UHGV virus genome: UHGV-0236108 | Source of the DNA: a virus | Reading direction: 5' to 3' (one strand) | Length of the DNA: 31,992 nucleotides | In this document: in pieces, positions 1,736 through 27,930 of the stretch | Layout: each line of letters starts with the position of its first letter | Numbering within the stretch: the first letter of the stretch is position 1 | The notes under the pieces: generated by a model | Database searches by the model: none | Seen by the model: the letters and a program-made list of their open reading frames with translations, nothing else | What the model was told of the DNA's origin: nothing | Translations under genes and position numbers: made by a program

Positions 1736-2560
1736 TCAGGCGGTAAAAGTACCAATAAAGGTTTCTACTTTGCTGTCCTTGAATTTCTCAACAAGCAGAT
1801 CACGAAATTCGTTAGCCATTTCTTCCTGCACTGCTTCCAGCTGAATAATGCGCAGAACCAGTACAGGACGATCGCCAGTGATAATGCTGAGGCGTAATTT
1901 AAACGGACGTTCTTTCAGGCCTTCAAACGGAACGCATTTAAATTCAAATGCCACTGGCATAATATCTTTGGTCTTCGCTTCGACAGACTCCATCAGGGAG
2001 CGTTTGCCGCTGAAGTCATTGTCTTCAAAATCAGCGGTCTGGTTTGCTTCAATCGTGATTTTACGGACTGCCGCAGCCGCTTTTGTTGCCTGAATGGCAT
2101 CACCATTAGCATCAAAGCCCACAAGGTAGTCGGCCCAGTCTTCAATCCATTCTGCCAGTGACTTCTGGGAGTTACGCTCGCCGTTAACAGACAACAGAGC
2201 AGAGAACGGTGCTGTCTTTTTCAGTTTGAGAGTGGCGGTGTTATCTGCGTGACCAGGCTCATCAATAGTACCTAGGTTAAGCACACTGACGGCACGCATA
2301 TTATCGGCATCGATAAAGCAGCGGGTGCCTTCATCCGCAAGATCTTTAGAATAACGGGTAAAGTCATCGATGCTGGCAGTGGAAAGCGCACCACGGAAAC
2401 GGAAGCGATTTAAATTAAATTTTTCCAGATCATGAATGCGGAAATTTTCAGGTAATGCCACTGCGTCGGCACCAATCTTACTGATAATTTCATTAACACC
2501 CTGAGCAGAAATAAGGGCATGGATTTGATTAATTGCGGTTGCGTCTAAGTTCTGAGACAT
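1736..2560 (-). CDS. yfdQ: DUF2303-type prophage protein, CPS-53 YfdQ-like (274 aa)
   Basis: 274-aa ORF with GAGGA Shine-Dalgarno before ATG 2560; length and position between the yfdP-like and yfdR-like genes match the K-12 yfdP-Q-R order; function unknown. Confidence 0.65.
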
Positions 2561-2625
2561 AATAAGTCCTCACTATATAAAGATATTCAGTGATGAGATA
2601 AATAATCAGTTAATTAAGAACGATA

Positions 2626-2988
2626 TTAATGACCTGCTGCGCGGAGTTTTCCGTCAGGTTCACCGGCAAGAGTCAGTAATTGTCCCTGGTCTTCCTGCAG
2701 AATAGTCAGGCGACCACCGCGATTGACATACATCGGCGTTTCGGTGGTGTCTTCTTCGGAAATTTTCCCGCGGTTAGTCGGACGAACATATGAGAGTTTG
2801 TGTTTTATTTTCACACGGTTCTCATCAAACGGTTCGATTTCCAGGTTGAGCGAAACCTTACCTTTGGTTTTCGTGTTCATCACACCGGAAGCGACTTCAC
2901 TGAGAACTGCGCCGATTTTGGTTTCAAATACGCCGCCGTCCAGCTCCCCGATAAATTCCTGCACGTTGGTACTGCGTTCGCTAGCCAT
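2626..2988 (-). CDS. yfdP: small prophage protein, CPS-53 YfdP-like (120 aa)
   Basis: Internal ATG at 2988 preceded by GAGGAG; the longer ORF-track extension to 3306 is Arg/Cys-rich and runs into structured noncoding DNA, so judged not translated. Confidence 0.55.
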   Translation of the reverse strand: MASERSTNVQEFIGELDGGVFETKIGAVLSEVASGVMNTKTKGKVSLNLEIEPFDENRVKIKHKLSYVRPTNRGKISEEDTTETPMYVNRGGRLTILQEDQGQLLTLAGEPDGKLRAAGH

Positions 2989-3425
2989 TTTGCTGCTCCT
3001 CATCATATCGACCCTGCAAGGTCGGTTGGTTTCTCCACAAAACAGAGAAGAACACCTGCGGTGGCAGTCGCCCCGGTGGATTGGGTTATGAGCCCGTCGT
3101 CCGGTGATGCTCTTCTCTGTTTTGTAAAAAGAGCGGTACCAGCCGGAAGCAAGGGTACAAGCTGGTACCGCCAGGACTACACACAGCATAAAGTTGTGGT
3201 GCCGGGTGCCTCCCGGTGCCTGGCGAAGGTTGCACACCAGGCGGGTGGGTATCCACAGAAGGTCGACTGTCAGCCTCAACCTTAACCCGCGTGCGCTGAG
3301 CCGCATTCACCACAACGCTAAGGATTCTCTCAGGTTGAAAATACTTAGCTGTTATGTGCCTGTCTTTTCACCACTTCAGGCTCGGTGGTATCCTTTTAAG
3401 CCCGTATACATAAAAGGAAAATCAA

Positions 3426-3671
3426 ATGACTTTTGATGAAAAAGAACTTGATAATGCAATTAATAAAATCATCGTAACGTCGCTCTTTTCCTGTCTTAGT
3501 GACACTCAGCAAAAACAGTTCTACGAATCGGCTTTCAACATGATCGAGCGTTGTTGTTTCTGCGATGCCGACGAGTTACCTGAAAAAATCAGGAAACAGT
3601 TGGCTGATGCTCTTCGAGTGCGACTTTCTGACCAATTTTCTGAAATGTGCTCTCCGAATTTGGACAAATAG
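3426..3671 (+). CDS. hypothetical small protein (81 aa)
   Basis: AAAGGAAA Shine-Dalgarno 5 nt before ATG 3426; Cys-containing acidic protein; no family recognised. Confidence 0.45.
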   Translation: MTFDEKELDNAINKIIVTSLFSCLSDTQQKQFYESAFNMIERCCFCDADELPEKIRKQLADALRVRLSDQFSEMCSPNLDK

Positions 3672-3864
3672 AAAAAGGCCATTTCCATTCAGGGTCTGAT
3701 GGAAATACTTCAGCCTGTTCCAAAGCACGGCGTAAAGAGAACACAACTCCAGCCATAATCTGATGTTTCCCATTGGTCCAGCTATCGCCGCTCTGATCTA
3801 CAGGGGCGGCTATGTCGTATGACCAAACGACTTCACAGTTATTGTTTAAAATCTGGACTTTCAT
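3589..3864 (-). CDS. hypothetical protein, possible first gene of the leftward early operon (92 aa from second ATG)
   Basis: ORF-track 3589..3885; ATG 3864 has an AGGTG upstream. 3' end overlaps the convergent 3426..3671 ORF by 83 nt and contains a hairpin, so the true extent is uncertain. Confidence 0.3.
   Translation of the reverse strand: MKVQILNNNCEVVWSYDIAAPVDQSGDSWTNGKHQIMAGVVFSLRRALEQAEVFPSDPEWKWPFSICPNSESTFQKIGQKVALEEHQPTVS
3681..3706 (-). terminator. hairpin with downstream T-tract on the minus strand (possible tL-type terminator or attenuator)
   Basis: ATTTCCAT / ATGGAAAT 8-bp inverted repeat with 10-nt loop; on the minus strand followed by GGCCTTTTTCTATTT. Confidence 0.35.
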
Positions 3865-4071
3865 TTCATACACCTGCTTTAACATGAGTGCCTAGTGGCA
3901 CAACATGACTCAACGAATCATCCTGGACTTCATATGCCCCAGGCGGCTACTTCGTGGGCGTCCTGCCTGTTCGTTTTTGACATTTACTGACTGCTTACGA
4001 CACATGCACCGTGTTGCAACCAGATTTTGTTGTAATCCTGTAGTTGGTCTGGAACAAAAGATAAAATTAAA

Positions 4072-4108
4072 TTGCGAGATATGCAAGTAATATTTGCGAG
4101 ATATGCAA
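4072..4108. promoter_or_regulatory. OL-like operator pair: two identical 15-bp palindromes TTGCGAGATATGCAA (4072-4086, 4094-4108) overlapping a likely leftward early promoter
   Basis: Exact direct duplication of a dyad-symmetric 15-mer 7 bp apart, lying beyond the cI terminator as OL/PL does in lambda; same motif family as the site at 4876-4890. Confidence 0.55.
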
Positions 4109-4119
4109 ATTTATAGGTA

Positions 4120-4142
4120 ATAAAAAGCCACCTTTCGGTGGC
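4120..4142 (-). terminator. rho-independent terminator downstream of the repressor gene
   Basis: GCCACC-TTTC-GGTGGC stem-loop (4127-4142) followed on the minus strand by TTTTTA (4121-4126), 20 bp past the cI stop. Confidence 0.6.
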
Positions 4143-4162
4143 CGATGGATGGGATATTGAGG

Positions 4163-4855
4163 TTAATTATGTCTCTTAAGGGTTTGCGACTGACTGATTA
4201 AGACCTTTCCAAAGACCATGAATCGGTGTTCGTTTTCGCTAGTAATTCCCCATTCACGGTAAATCTGGTTATCAGAAATCACCAGCAGTTTGTCAGGAAT
4301 CATTTGAAGTCTTTTAACGTATATTTTGTCATCAAAACCAAAGACATATATACCATCACCATCAAACTGATTGATGCTGACATCAACGAAGATGAGATCT
4401 CCTGGCTCAATGGTTGGACACATACTGTCCCCACGAACGTTGATAACTTTGATGTGATTGGCTGGTCGTCCGCCGAACATTGATACAGCATTATCAGTTC
4501 TGTATTCGATGGCATGAATCACATCAATGACATCACCGCCCTGGATAAGGCCATTTCCCGCACTGGCACTGATATCCAGCATTTCAATACGGAACACATC
4601 CTTCACCTGCGCAACATCCTCATTATTACTGTTTTTATATACAGTATTACTTTTGTGGGCAGAGGTAAAGAGATCAGCAATATCAACACCTAAGCTCTTG
4701 GCAATATTACTCAGTGTTTGTTCGGTAAATTGTTTTTGCTTACCCGTTTCTAAGCGCGAGATGTTCGCCGCATCTACTCCTATCGCTTCAGCGAGATCGG
4801 CGATTTTCATGTTCTTCGCTTGGCGAAGTTGTCTGACTCGGTTTCCTATGTTCAT
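4163..4855 (-). CDS. CI-type prophage repressor: N-terminal XRE helix-turn-helix plus C-terminal S24 (LexA-like) autopeptidase domain
   Basis: HTH segment MKIADLAEAIGVDAANISRLETG; C-terminal half with the S24-family layout (VRGDSMCPTIEPGDLIFVD ... KIYVKRL); no Shine-Dalgarno before ATG 4855, consistent with a leaderless PRM-type transcript. Confidence 0.9.
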   Translation of the reverse strand: MNIGNRVRQLRQAKNMKIADLAEAIGVDAANISRLETGKQKQFTEQTLSNIAKSLGVDIADLFTSAHKSNTVYKNSNNEDVAQVKDVFRIEMLDISASAGNGLIQGGDVIDVIHAIEYRTDNAVSMFGGRPANHIKVINVRGDSMCPTIEPGDLIFVDVSINQFDGDGIYVFGFDDKIYVKRLQMIPDKLLVISDNQIYREWGITSENEHRFMVFGKVLISQSQTLKRHN

Positions 4856-4875
4856 GCGTTTATTACATTTCTTTA

Positions 4876-4940
4876 TTGCGTGATAAGCAAATTAACTTGC
4901 GCAAAATAATTGCGTGAAATAACATGCATAACGCGCAATA
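4876..4940. promoter_or_regulatory. OR-like divergent operator/promoter region between repressor and cro
   Basis: TTGCGTGATAAGCAA (4876-4890) matches the OL palindrome family; further ATTGCG(T/C)G half-sites at 4896-4903, 4909-4916 and inverted at 4931-4940; candidate PR -35 TTGCGC (4897-4902) and -10 TAACAT (4920-4925) ahead of cro. Confidence 0.5.
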
Positions 4941-4952
4941 TTTGGAGGGTAT

Positions 4953-5213
4953 ATGCAATCACCATTACGAAATGTGCGTAAGGCGCATGGTTTCACTTTG
5001 CAGCATGTTGCTGCGGGTGTTCAAGTCAATCCAGCGACGTTGAGTCGTATTGAGAGGCTGGAGCAGATTCCATCTATCGAGCTTGCAGAACGTTTAGCCA
5101 ATTTTTTTAAGGGTGAAGTCAGCGAAATGCAGATTCTTTATCCGGCACGTTTTCAATCTAGCCAAAACCAGAATGGGTTTAAACCACAGGAACAGGAGGT
5201 GAACCGTGGGTAA
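4953..5213 (+). CDS. Cro-like XRE-family HTH regulator (86 aa)
   Basis: GGAGGG Shine-Dalgarno, ATG 4953; HTH signature FTLQHVAAGVQVNPATLSRIE; divergent from the repressor gene. Confidence 0.8.
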   Translation: MQSPLRNVRKAHGFTLQHVAAGVQVNPATLSRIERLEQIPSIELAERLANFFKGEVSEMQILYPARFQSSQNQNGFKPQEQEVNRG

Positions 5214-5243
5214 GCATCACTGGAAAGTAGAAAAACAGCCTGA

Positions 5244-5756
5244 GTGGTACGTGAAAGCTGTCAGAAAAACTATCGCAGCGTTGCCGGGGGGTACGCTGAA
5301 GCTGCTGACTGGCTGGATGTAACAGAGAACGCATTATTTAACCGCCTTCGTGCCGATGGCGATCAGATTTTCCCGCTGGGATGGGCAATGATTTTGCAAC
5401 GTGCTGGTGGAACTCACTTCATTGCTGACGCTGTGGCGCAGTCTGCAAATGGCGTCTTTGTGTCTCTTCCTGATGTCGAGGATGTGGACAACGCCGATAT
5501 CAACCAACGCCTGCTGGAGGTCATTGAACAGATCGGCAGTTATTCAAAACAGATTCGTTCAGCAATTGAAGACGGTGTAGTGGAACCGCATGAGAAGACA
5601 GCAATTAACGACGAGCTGTACCTCTCAATTTCGAAGCTGCAGGAGCATGCAGCACTGGTCTACAAAATTTTTTGCATTTCAGAAAGTAATGACGCCCGCG
5701 AGTGTGCAGCTCCGGGCGCCGTGGCGTGTCGTGACTGTGGAGAAACTAACGCATGA
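5244..5756 (+). CDS. CII-like regulatory protein (phage 186 CII / CP76-type), ~170 aa
   Basis: Position immediately after cro; segment [35 protein letters not shown] resembles the remembered 186 CII segment NKLNPEQPHQFTPPELWLLTDLTEDSTLVDGFLAQ; GTG start, similar length to 186 CII (169 aa). Confidence 0.5.
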
Positions 5757-23955: not shown

Positions 23956-25789
23956 ATTTGAGCTTAAGGCGTTGATCACCGGTGTCGACAGGCTTTCTCC
24001 CGCGCTGTCGAAAATGCAAAAGAAAATCCGGGGATTTAAACGCCAGGCGGAAGAAGCGTCACAGGGTGGGCTGGCGCTTGGTGGCGGACTGGCTGCGGGT
24101 CTGACGCTTTCCCTGAAATCTTATGCCGATCAGGAAAACGCCGCCACCGGGCTGAAAGTTGCCATGATGGATGCGAACGGTGAGGTCGGAAAGAGCTTTC
24201 AGGACATCAATAAACTGGCTATTGGTCTGGGTAACCAGCTACCCGGTACAACGGCTGATTTCCAGAACATGATGCAGATGCTGGTGCGTCAGGGGATCCC
24301 GGCAGAAAACATTCTTGGCGGTGTGGGTAAAGCGACCGCTTATCTTGCGGTACAACTGAAAAAAACACCGGAAGCGGCTGCTGAGTTTGCTGCAAAGATG
24401 CAGGATGCTACCGGAACGGCGTCAGAAGACATGATGGGGCTGTTCGACACTATCCAGAAGGCGTTTTATCTGGGCGTTGACGATACCAACATGTTGTCCT
24501 TCTTCACTAAAACCAGTTCTGTTCTGAAGATGGTGAACAAGGACGGTCTTCAGGCTGCACAGAGCCTTGCCCCCATCAGCGTCATGATGGATCAGATGGG
24601 GATGAACGGAGAGTCGGCAGGTAATGCCCTGCGAAAAGTTATCCAGTCCGGATTAAGCGTTAAGAAAATCAGGGACGTCAATAAAGTCATGGCCCGCCAG
24701 AAACTCGGGGTACAGCTCGATTTTACTGACGGCAAAGGAAGTTTTGGCGGTCTTGATAACATGTTCAGGCAACTGGCAAAGCTGCGAAAACTGACCGACG
24801 TTAAACGAACTGGTGTACTTAAGGCAATATTTGGTGATGATGCCGAAACCCTTCAGGTGGTCAATGCACTAATCGATAAAGGAAAGGATGGCTACGATCA
24901 GATCCAGCAGAAGATGAATAAACAGGCCAGCCTGAATAAACGTGTTCAGGCACAGCTTGGTACGCTGTCCAACCTGTGGGAGGCAATGACAGGGACCGCA
25001 ACTAACGGCCTTGCGGCTATTGGCGGTACATTTTCTGGTGACGCCAAAAATATCACGCAATGGCTGGGGGAGTTGGGGGAGAAATTCACGAAGTTTGCGG
25101 ATGAAAATCCCCGGGTTATTCGCGGCGTCGTCGGGCTTGCTGCCGGTCTTGCGATTCTGAAACTGGGATTGATGGGCGTTGGCGGTGCCATCAGTATTGT
25201 CAGCAGGATCATGTCGATGACGCCGATTGGCATGATTACGACGGCGATAGCCATGGCTGCGGGATTAATTATCACTAACTGGGATGTTGTCGGACCTTAT
25301 TTTAAGAAACTCTGGGAAACCATTGGTCCTTATTTTGAGGCTGGCTGGGAACTTCTGAAGAAAGTTTTTGCCTGGTCGCCGCTGGGGATGGTCATCAATA
25401 ACTGGGGACCGGTTGTTAAGTGGTTTCAGGATATGTGGGACAAGCTGAAGCCAATTATTGAGTGGTTTACCGACAGTTCCGGTGACACGGTCGATGCCAT
25501 TAACTCGGCGCAGTGGGGCGCGGGTGCTTATGATGCTTATGGGACGGGAATACCGGCGCGGGGATACACACCTTATCCGGCGGTGGATCCGGCTCAGTCA
25601 AACAACGCCTCTAATGCCACAGGCCCGAATCCCTTCATGATTAACAAAGCTTCTGCGGCAAAAGTTGATGGTGAGATCAAGGTATCTTTTGTGAATTCGC
25701 CTCCGGGTATGCGGGTTATGGAAACGCGATCCAGCGGTATCGACGTGAATCACGACGTTGGCTACACCCGATTTGGTATGGGGGGCTGA
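23948..25789 (+). CDS. tail tape measure protein
   Basis: 613 aa; Gly/Ala-rich hydrophobic stretches and coiled-coil regions; position after the chaperone pair. Confidence 0.85.
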   Translation: MAEFELKALITGVDRLSPALSKMQKKIRGFKRQAEEASQGGLALGGGLAAGLTLSLKSYADQENAATGLKVAMMDANGEVGKSFQDINKLAIGLGNQLPGTTADFQNMMQMLVRQGIPAENILGGVGKATAYLAVQLKKTPEAAAEFAAKMQDATGTASEDMMGLFDTIQKAFYLGVDDTNMLSFFTKTSSVLKMVNKDGLQAAQSLAPISVMMDQMGMNGESAGNALRKVIQSGLSVKKIRDVNKVMARQKLGVQLDFTDGKGSFGGLDNMFRQLAKLRKLTDVKRTGVLKAIFGDDAETLQVVNALIDKGKDGYDQIQQKMNKQASLNKRVQAQLGTLSNLWEAMTGTATNGLAAIGGTFSGDAKNITQWLGELGEKFTKFADENPRVIRGVVGLAAGLAILKLGLMGVGGAISIVSRIMSMTPIGMITTAIAMAAGLIITNWDVVGPYFKKLWETIGPYFEAGWELLKKVFAWSPLGMVINNWGPVVKWFQDMWDKLKPIIEWFTDSSGDTVDAINSAQWGAGAYDAYGTGIPARGYTPYPAVDPAQSNNASNATGPNPFMINKASAAKVDGEIKVSFVNSPPGMRVMETRSSGIDVNHDVGYTRFGMGG

Positions 25790-26601: not shown

Positions 26602-27930
26602 ATGACGTGGAAAGACAGACTTCAGGACGCGTCATTTCGCGGCGTGCCGTTTAAGGTTGAAGAAGAAAGTGCGGGAACCGGTCGCCGTGTGGAAACACAC
26701 GAATACCCGAACCGCGACAAGCCCTATACCGAAGATCTGGGAAAAGTCACTTTCCGCCCGTCCATCACAGCTTATGTGGTGGGAGATGACTGCTTTGACC
26801 AGCGCGATCGCCTGATTGAAGCGCTGAATAAACCAGGTCCCGGCACGCTTGTCCACCCGACTTACGGTGAGCTGAAAGTCTGTGTTGACGGGGAAGTTAG
26901 GGTCAGCACATCGAAAAGTGAAGGGCGTATTGTCCGCTTTGACCTGAAGTTTATCGAAGCAGGAAAACTCTCTTACCCCACATCAGGTGCAGCGACGGCG
27001 CAGACGCTGATGTCATCCTGTTCTGCACTGGATGACTGCATCAGTGACAGCTTCAGCGGTTTCAGTATCGATGGTGTGGCGGATTTCGTGCAGAACGACG
27101 TTATCGGTAATGCCAGCATAATGCTGGGGTATGTTTCTGATGCGATGAAAGTGGTGGATTCTGCCGTATCGGATGCCGCCAGGCTGTTGCAGGGGGATAT
27201 CTCGGTACTTCTGCCGCCGCCATCGTCAGGCAAAAATTTCGTTGAGCAGGTGCAGAAAATGTGGCGTACCGGCAAACGCCTTTATGGTAACGCCAGCGAC
27301 CTGGTCACCATGATCAAAACGCTTTCCGGTGTCAGCCTCGGCAGCGATTTGCAACCGCGCGGCGTCTGGAAAACGGACAGTAAAACCACCGCCACGGCGA
27401 CGCAGCAGCGTAACGTGGTTGCCAGCACCCTTCGTACGACCGCAATCAGCGAAGCGGCGTATGCCGTCACCCGATTGCCTGCGCCAACAACTTCCGCGGT
27501 GATGCAGAATTCCGCAGTGGGGCAGGCAACAACACCCGCGCAGAGCACCGGCTGGCCTTCCGTCACGCATCCGGCACTGAACAATGCACCGGCGGTGAAA
27601 AACACGGTTGACCTGCCGACGTGGGAAGAACTGACTGACATTCGCGACATACTGAATACGGCAATTGATAAGGAGTTGTCCCGTACAACCAGTGATGCGC
27701 TGTTTCTGGCGCTGCGCCGGGTGAAAGCAGATCTGAATGCGGATATCAACACGCGCCTTGAACAGTCTGCACGGATCATTCAGCGCACACCGGATGAGGT
27801 TTTACCCGCGCTGGTGCTGGCGGCGACCTGGTTTGATAACGCGGCGCGTGACGCGGACATTATCCGGCGTAATGCCATTACGCATCCCGGCTTTGTGCCG
27901 GTGATCCCTCTGAAGGTGCCAGTGCAATGA
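26602..27930 (+). CDS. DNA circulation protein (Mu N-like)
   Basis: GGAG 6 nt before ATG 26602 (ORF-track start 26560 lies inside the terminator); first gene after tape measure and lipoprotein insert. Confidence 0.75.
   Translation: MTWKDRLQDASFRGVPFKVEEESAGTGRRVETHEYPNRDKPYTEDLGKVTFRPSITAYVVGDDCFDQRDRLIEALNKPGPGTLVHPTYGELKVCVDGEVRVSTSKSEGRIVRFDLKFIEAGKLSYPTSGAATAQTLMSSCSALDDCISDSFSGFSIDGVADFVQNDVIGNASIMLGYVSDAMKVVDSAVSDAARLLQGDISVLLPPPSSGKNFVEQVQKMWRTGKRLYGNASDLVTMIKTLSGVSLGSDLQPRGVWKTDSKTTATATQQRNVVASTLRTTAISEAAYAVTRLPAPTTSAVMQNSAVGQATTPAQSTGWPSVTHPALNNAPAVKNTVDLPTWEELTDIRDILNTAIDKELSRTTSDALFLALRRVKADLNADINTRLEQSARIIQRTPDEVLPALVLAATWFDNAARDADIIRRNAITHPGFVPVIPLKVPVQ

Follow-up and report, generated by a model that had tools for sequence, protein, structure and literature searches.

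The 437-bp gap between open reading frames (ORFs) at positions 2989-3425 of the virus genome UHGV-0236108 carries on its minus strand a structured core, running from 3319 down to 3188, that belongs with the known STnc100/PasD/EcOnc27 family of RNAs. Within that family we distinguish a new subclass, here called G-type, which includes this copy. All coordinates are those of the plus strand of the 31,992-nt stretch that was analyzed (the window). The gap as a whole is probably the RNA-rich leader of a repressor-controlled early-left operon, transcribed from the minus strand in the same direction as yfdP. A preliminary description, made from the letters of the sequence, had suggested a small RNA, a riboregulator or a recombination site here; the small RNA or riboregulator idea is borne out by a copy of STnc100/PasD type with strong covariation and no conserved reading frame.

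At curated cut-offs, Rfam has no match in the window. When the search is relaxed, STnc100 (RF02076) is the one match, on the minus strand from 3346 to 3124 and over the full model (positions 1-206), with 45.1 bits and an E-value of 2.1e-8, short of the curated gathering cut-off of 47. The Rfam search that the preliminary description had recommended was thus empty by the curated standard but informative below it. Other copies score 39.5 (Shigella phage SfV), 35.1 (ST64B), 33.4 (phage P1) and 34.4 bits (the Qin prophage of E. coli K-12), and the canonical copy of HK639 scores 52.6 bits, above the cut-off. We also built our own covariance model, R1, from 37 diverse sequences of both subclasses, with training based partly on the window copy; the phage P1 copy was left out, and it and the Qin copy are independent of the model. 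R1 matches the window from 3319 to 3188 on the minus strand with 86.3 bits (4.7 bits on the plus strand), the phage P1 copy with 75.9 bits, and two K-12 copies, one in e14 and one between dicF and dicB in Qin, with 69.3 and 75.7 bits, respectively. Because the HK639 copy scores with R1 (91.9 bits) as well as with Rfam, R1 is tied to the STnc100 family. This is the one strong R1 match in the window, and there is no second copy in the right operon. A weak second match at 27691-27794 on the plus strand (18.3 bits, E ~0.001) lacks helix P5 and is probably due to chance.

Folding and covariation analysis, also recommended in the preliminary description, finds five covarying helices on the minus strand. 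P1 pairs 3308-3316 with 3193-3201, P2 pairs 3300-3304 with 3289-3294 around a bulged A, P2a pairs 3285-3288 with 3243-3246, P4 pairs 3235-3242 with 3218-3225, and P5 pairs 3212-3216 with 3202-3206. Together with the conserved junction and loop motifs, these are the core helices of the family, and the window copy has all of them. Over 99 distinct sequences, 95.2% of the cells pair, and 16 of the 26 pairs show two-sided changes (446 cells). None of 500 shuffles reaches the observed values, and slid controls pair at 37-48% (31-48% across both alignments). A second alignment, centered on the G-type and including copies chosen by their P2 motif, agrees in these figures and also shows double changes in P5, from G-C to U-A in 8 sequences.

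The structure line of RF02076 as drawn by Rfam does not include a pseudoknot that we find between the stretch after P2a and the loop of P4. In the window it joins AAGGUUG (3277-3283) to CAACCUU (3226-3232). The pairing occurs in 94% of the sequences (best duplex score of at least 5), with helices of 5-11 bp whose sequences differ widely, and the mean best duplex is 6.46, compared with 4.42 ± 0.12 after loops have been exchanged among the sequences. The 5' strand of the pseudoknot can also form a local hairpin, P3 (3276-3283 with 3259-3266). As several G-type copies have this alternative and others do not, we do not claim a conserved switch between the two. Upstream of the core, the Rfam model also covers a 5' flank (3320-3349), in which 3317-3329 and 3337-3349 form an imperfect helix of 13 nt. 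A weak promoter-like site, AAGACA-17-TATTTT (8/12), lies near the upstream edge of this flank.

These structures account for the repeats that had drawn attention to the gap. The CCGGG-TGCCT-CCCGG hairpin of the preliminary description is present, one base away from where it had been placed, at 3202-3216, and it is P5, near-invariant and the most conserved hairpin of the family. The GGTGCC repeats mentioned with it occur three times, at 3198, 3205 and 3215. The large inverted repeat is equally real, but its arms (GCGGTACCAGC at 3133-3143 and GCTGGTACCGC at 3161-3171) are 11 bp rather than 10 bp long and enclose 17 nt rather than 16 nt; this is the intrinsic terminator at the 3' end of the RNA. 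Two further repeats had been overlooked, a perfect 15-bp repeat (3037-3051/3111-3125) that can be extended to 25 bp, and a 9-bp repeat (3193-3201/3308-3316) with arms 106 nt apart, which is the closing helix P1. The impression of a highly structured region was correct, since the longest perfect inverted repeat is 15 bp and 300 dinucleotide shuffles reach 11 bp once and never exceed it. Fold z-scores are modest in the small RNA part (minus strand, -2.46; plus strand, -1.77) and strong in the yfdP-proximal part (-5.17 for 2985-3130). Contrary to what had been stated, the region is hardly GC-rich: the gap has 53.5% GC compared with 51.8% for the window, a marginal excess, and the core (56.5%) has rank 347 of 1271 windows. 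ARAGORN finds no tRNA or transfer-messenger RNA (tmRNA) in the window.

Studied members of the family share much with the window copy. STnc100, PasD1 and PasD2 of enteropathogenic E. coli (EPEC), and EcOnc27/sRNA103 of enterohemorrhagic E. coli (EHEC) have the same five-helix core; the near-invariant GGUGAAU, the P2 loop UNNGC and CACCGGGAGGCACCCGGCACC are found in both, as are the overall length, the 3' linker followed by an intrinsic terminator, and the prophage location. These relatives are associated with Hfq and expressed, and Hfq binding and expression of the window copy are predicted. PasD is Hfq-dependent on Northern blot and has targets found through the ligation and sequencing of interacting RNAs (RIL-seq) (PMC8550237), and EcOnc27, which overlaps STnc100 beside stx2, binds Hfq (PMC12711010). 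In EDL933, RNA-seq reads are listed for all 11 annotated STnc100 copies, and STnc100_4 was confirmed by Northern blot (PMC5331693). A common ancestor of PasD and STnc100 was recently proposed (bioRxiv 10.64898/2026.05.13.724894). In contrast to the canonical STnc100 copies, the window copy has no promoter of its own, its 5' pseudoknot strand can pair locally, and its place is the early-left operon, not the interval from Q to the lysis genes or the region downstream of stx2.

The linker and terminator, T1, occupy 3124-3192. The stem (3161-3171 with 3133-3143, 11-13 bp) is followed by the tail UCUUUUUAC at 3132-3124, and stem plus UCUUUUU begin 20 nt past P1, where a member of the STnc100 family is expected to have its terminator; of 94 canonical copies, 78 have a site resembling a terminator within 200 nt. 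In ST64B, which is ~77% identical to the window, the T1 stem has a wholly different sequence (GUCGGCGUC...GACGCCGAC) in the same place and with an identical U-tract end (CUUUUUAC), showing that T1 is conserved in structure, not in sequence. The linker and T1 also align with DicF, with 44 identities in 63 columns, a value exceeded by none of 1000 shuffles. The Rfam model for DicF (RF00039) scores 3131-3185 of the minus strand at 15.9 bits (E 1.3), far from its cut-off of 48 and from the 76.7 bits of K-12 dicF itself. In addition to the alignment, the window and the Qin dicBF operon share the terminator type and the setting in a repressor-controlled prophage operon, and each then has a helix of more than 20 bp followed by the ribosome-binding site of the next gene. 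The order is permuted: in Qin, DicF with its terminator is followed by a long helix that encloses the core and then by dicB, whereas in the window the core is followed by the DicF-like T1, the long helix M3 and yfdP. DicF also differs in that its 5' end is made by RNase E and in that its xylR-pairing 5' part is not conserved in the window.

The G-type is distinguished by P2, which reads GCGGC/GC(A)CGC, compared with CCCCC/GG(N)GGG in canonical copies, and by its lack of promoters. Taking a sigma-70 match of at least 9/12 adjoining P1 as a promoter, we found none in 21 distinct G-type copies, versus 24 of 95 canonical copies (ending at most 16 nt from P1). For the window copy, a scan of 2500-5300 found no convincing sigma-70 site on the minus strand, which does not fit a stand-alone gene. 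G-type copies instead lie within operons. The most common position is between dicF and dicB in Qin-type prophages; the downstream gene of this lineage is annotated as dicB, not kilR. The phage P1 copy is in the C1-repressed ban operon, 27 nt before tciA, and other copies are found 30-60 nt before different small genes. In the window, ST64B and two further loci (L011 and L099), the core is downstream of the gene for a cI-like S24 repressor and on the same strand. In e14 of K-12, ymfH, which is annotated over the homologous sequence, is within the induction regulon of that prophage (PMC12132413). Synteny as judged by YfdP, YfdQ, YfdR and cI holds for phages of SfV, ST64B and mEp460 type only, and the other G-type copies have different neighbors. 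In mEp460, the same place before the same T1 is taken by a core variant that diverges further (22 bits; L002 2692-2834, minus strand), with P2 as GCGCA/UGCGC and P5 as CCGG-AGAUCAGCA-CCGG; the annotated mEp460 ORFs gp36 and gp37 lie over this RNA on the opposite strand and may be spurious.

In a scan across species, all G-type copies came from Enterobacterales except for those on two contigs of metagenome-assembled genomes (labelled Veillonella and Collinsella), which are probably contamination. In a genome-wide motif scan, 27 of 48 matched loci had no R1 match; since these are mostly in GC-rich, non-enterobacterial genomes, we treated them as chance matches. Sequence matching the RNA region of the window is present in 2782 of 5426 complete E. 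coli genomes, and sequence matching the dicF-dicB region, which bears the core in K-12, is present in 4651 of them. Canonical copies also occur as tandem arrays of three to five copies ~250 nt apart, each with a different pseudoknot sequence. In IMG/VR these include L027 (369, 630, 881), L036 (1722, 1983, 2234, 3210), L074 (4376, 4637, 4889, 5350, 8376) and L017 (four copies). Another recurrent feature, CCTGGTAAATCGGTAGCTCGGACTATTAGG, is found ~100 nt downstream of one canonical group (L013, L028, L030, L080, L083 and others).

The stretch 3100-3425 matches the chromosome of E. coli strain 13C1079T with 100% identity, and the whole gap is 97% identical to SfV. Gene order around the gap is lambdoid, with a cI-type S24 repressor gene at 4163-4855 (minus strand) and a cro-like gene at 4953-5213 (plus strand). 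The supported genes that flank the gap both point leftward, namely yfdP (2626-2988, coordinates from RefSeq, with the start codon at 2986-2988) and an orf33/ymfJ-like gene (3589-3885). The gap had been called divergent on account of an 81-amino acid ORF at 3426-3671 on the plus strand, which is poorly supported: it overlaps the 3' end of the orf33/ymfJ-like gene by 83 bp, occurs only in four near-identical phage records, is unannotated in an identical RefSeq genome, lacks divergent homologues, and shows no relationship to K-12 YmfI. To the left of cI are two perfect copies of an operator, TTGCGAGATATGCAA, at 4072-4086 and 4094-4108 (minus strand), and two copies of a related operator are between cI and cro (4876-4890 and 4924-4938). 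Given these operators and the lambdoid gene order, we infer an early-left promoter, PL, that reads leftward from the left of cI, with TTGCAT-17-TATCTT at ~4057-4085 as a candidate (minus strand; the elements together span 4057-4108). PL would drive orf33, the RNA region, and then yfdP, yfdQ and yfdR. By comparison, matches to the isrK and C4 antisense RNAs exceed the Rfam cut-offs in the right operon of SfV (L001 6487-6675), and the otherwise similar window has none.

Between T1 and yfdP is the long helix M3 (3037-3125, minus strand), with 15 perfect base pairs, 25 with extensions, and a branched interior. In ST64B, M3 has a compensatory change from G-C to A-U. We regard M3 as a candidate site for processing by RNase III. 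The 14 nt of its apical stem-loop, CGGGCUCAUAACCC (3083-3096), are the same as in the anticodon arm of the E. coli initiator tRNA, tRNA-fMet, including three G-C pairs and the CUCAUAA loop. The motif is kept in phages of SfV, mEp460 and Stx2c type and in L025; ST64B (CUCAUUA) and e14 have altered forms of it. The motif may serve as a decoy or binding site, or be a coincidence. The yfdP leader proper (2989-3026, minus strand) contains a hairpin, M4 (3007-3026), and a Shine-Dalgarno sequence, GAGGAG (2996-3001). At the position of M4, ST64B has another hairpin of different sequence.

Based on these features, we lean, with only modest conviction, toward an early-left leader that yields a terminated, Hfq-type small RNA acting in trans. 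The elements would be read in the order PL, orf33, the 130-nt pseudoknotted core, the 20-nt linker, T1, the 25-bp M3, and the small hairpin with the yfdP ribosome-binding site. On induction or infection, most leftward transcripts would end at T1, releasing a structured RNA of ~200-330 nt, which would bind Hfq through its terminator tail and base-pair in trans, as its studied relatives do. T1 would also attenuate yfdPQR and the genes beyond. Transcripts that read through would be cleaved in M3, much as RNase III cleaves in the long helix beside DicF, and this cleavage would give the mature 5' end of the yfdP mRNA.

Several points weigh against a trans-acting small RNA of this family. The Rfam score of the window copy is 1.9 bits under the STnc100 cut-off, the relatives were collected from IMG/VR through an exact 19-mer in P5, and the covariation alignments (A2 and A4) had both been fitted to the model. 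The authors of the SfV genome predicted a rho-independent terminator downstream of orf33 (SfV feature 25034-25066), that is, between orf33 and the RNA; mapped onto the window, it is an AT-rich hairpin with a U-run at 3406-3438 on the minus strand. Should this terminator work efficiently, the RNA would depend on a promoter of its own, for which only the weak 8/12 candidate is available. In most other G-type lineages, the core is not followed by a terminator and lies 22-60 nt upstream of a start codon, and the near-invariant junction and loop nucleotides, along with the pseudoknot, exceed what a base-pairing small RNA needs.

The position of most G-type lineages directly in 5' untranslated regions without a terminator, combined with the near-invariant junctions and loops, gives weight to a rival reading in which the core is a cis-acting leader domain, either a sensor of a ligand or factor or a processing or stability element, that sets downstream expression and leaves the terminated RNA as an Hfq-binding by-product. 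We regard this as a serious possibility, though not a likely one. The short distances to dicB, tciA and the other small genes, and the lack of promoters, are what a leader would show; in Qin-type copies and in the L025 copy (~10172) a terminator is just upstream of the core, and in the window a terminator comes no more than 20 nt after the core, the layout of a transcriptional attenuator. Helices covary while junction and loop nucleotides stay near-invariant, and in several G-type copies the 5' strand of the pseudoknot pairs locally (in the window, AAGGUUGA with UCGACCUU), so that the core could switch. However, this local pairing is not kept in all G-type copies, pseudoknot sequences are hypervariable, and P1 and the terminator are separated by 25-45 nt, a long linker for a riboswitch. 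Canonical copies, sometimes in tandem, stand alone with consensus promoters and terminators of their own, and the heterogeneity of the downstream genes suggests no particular ligand or factor. A bolder version, which we think improbable, is that the G-type core would found a new class of cis-acting leaders in phages, compact five-helix pseudoknotted domains that bind a conserved host factor or small molecule or process themselves; they would gate host-killing or early genes that lie just past terminators, such as dicB, tciA and, here, yfdPQR, with M3 offering a mimic of the initiator tRNA anticodon arm as a decoy or binding site.

From its position, our first hypothesis was a processive antiterminator like the put RNAs of HK022 and HK639, which modify RNA polymerase in cis and would here carry it past T1 and later terminators in a phage without N. 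The put RNAs are likewise structured RNAs of ~70-130 nt in the early-left leader of lambdoid phages with no recognizable N, and the window has no recognizable N-like protein, with orf33 lacking any family match. The core is upstream of a terminator in the early-left leader and, in SfV-like phages, ST64B, L011 and L099, sits after the repressor gene and ahead of the first early-left genes. We rejected this hypothesis after tests on HK022 and HK639, and consider it very unlikely. There is no match in sequence or structure: R1 has no match with E <1 in the early region of HK022 and misses the annotated putL-like RNA of HK639 (34187-34312), whose canonical STnc100 copy is located between Q and the holin gene. 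Put sites are found in both early operons, whereas the core occurs once in the window with no second copy in the right operon, and the relatives of the core end at their own terminators and accumulate as discrete RNAs, the opposite of self-antitermination.

A recombination or mosaic-junction site, the last of the suggestions made in the preliminary description, is about as improbable, and we rejected it as a primary explanation. Homology does break at ~3173, the 5' edge of T1, and at ~3389, next to a 35-bp block (3355-3389) with the hairpin ACCAC-N10-GTGGT (3370-3389) that has a 94% identical counterpart in lambda, P22, HK620, HK629 and many other lambdoid phages. This block marks a mosaic boundary. 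However, the breakpoints fall at the edges of RNA modules, the usual pattern of lambdoid mosaicism, we found no repeats of recombinase type, and nothing site-specific is indicated; we attribute the conservation at the gap to the covarying RNA structure. In HK629, a similar block is ~190 nt upstream of the cIII thermometer.

Least probable of all, and also rejected, is a protein-coding reading, either a YmfH-like gene on the minus strand or one of the Arg/Cys-rich ORFs, which were correctly judged to be non-coding: all six ORFs across 2989-3425 lack matches in Pfam and NCBIfam, and no coding frame is conserved across the gap. The case for a protein comes from annotation and from one phenotype. 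In K-12, ymfH is annotated as a protein gene over the homologous sequence of e14 (L006 2901-3212), and the Prokaryotic Genome Annotation Pipeline (PGAP) calls a 'hypothetical protein' under nearly every match that covers at least 68% of the query, among 30 listed rows drawn from across the ranking of 2,792 matching records. Overexpression of a ymfH clone is reported to trigger RcaT, the toxin of retron-Sen2 (bioRxiv 10.1101/2020.06.22.160242). Against this, in a genome identical to the window, PGAP labels the YmfH-like region a frameshifted pseudogene. In the alignment, the e14 copy lacks 1 nt of the P5 loop, which is otherwise invariant, and a G of its P5 stem is changed to A. These changes alter its reading frame, and the K-12 frame depends on the deletion. 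ST64B has further frame-breaking indels, so a frame for a YmfH-like protein is not conserved among the homologues. K-12 YmfH has no Pfam or NCBIfam match, and the conservation follows RNA helices with compensatory changes. By its appearance, ymfH is a decayed gene for an RNA, not one for a protein. Because the clone spans the decayed RNA, this RNA could just as well be the cause of the effect on the retron.

K-12 also has an intact G-type core, at 1,649,451-1,649,586 of MG1655 (NC_000913.3, plus strand; L178 2452-2587), where nothing is annotated. It fills the 175-nt spacer between dicF and dicB and ends 22 nt before dicB. RNAfold alone places P2, the central domain, P4 and P5 of this copy inside a P1 extended to 21 bp (z = -3.76). 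RNase III is known to yield a 72-nt form of DicF (PMC5069750). By our own arithmetic, the 3' end of that form is 19 nt past the 53-nt form and would fall inside the 5' strand of the extended P1. Transcripts that reach dicB are undetected in normal growth (bioRxiv 10.1101/2023.04.14.536235).

The leader in the window can be compared with other RNAs of phage operons. C4 of P1 and P7, CI of P4, and IsrK are structured phage RNAs that are processed from longer transcripts of repressor-controlled operons. They belong to other Rfam families than the window RNA, the window has neither a C4 nor an isrK match, and we found no complementary target sites within the operon.

For the family, these results add a pseudoknot and a second, operon-embedded deployment to RNAs that are tied to Shiga-toxin phages and to EPEC virulence. 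Given that the scored G-type copies fall under the Rfam cut-off, annotation pipelines that rely on the cut-off would miss them. The annotation of K-12 is corrected at two places: ymfH is a probable decayed RNA gene, and the dicF-dicB spacer contains an intact, unannotated structured RNA. In our reading, the published RNase III site would be in the helix that closes the K-12 core. This bears on how toxic prophage genes that lie behind terminators, such as dicB, are silenced and switched on.

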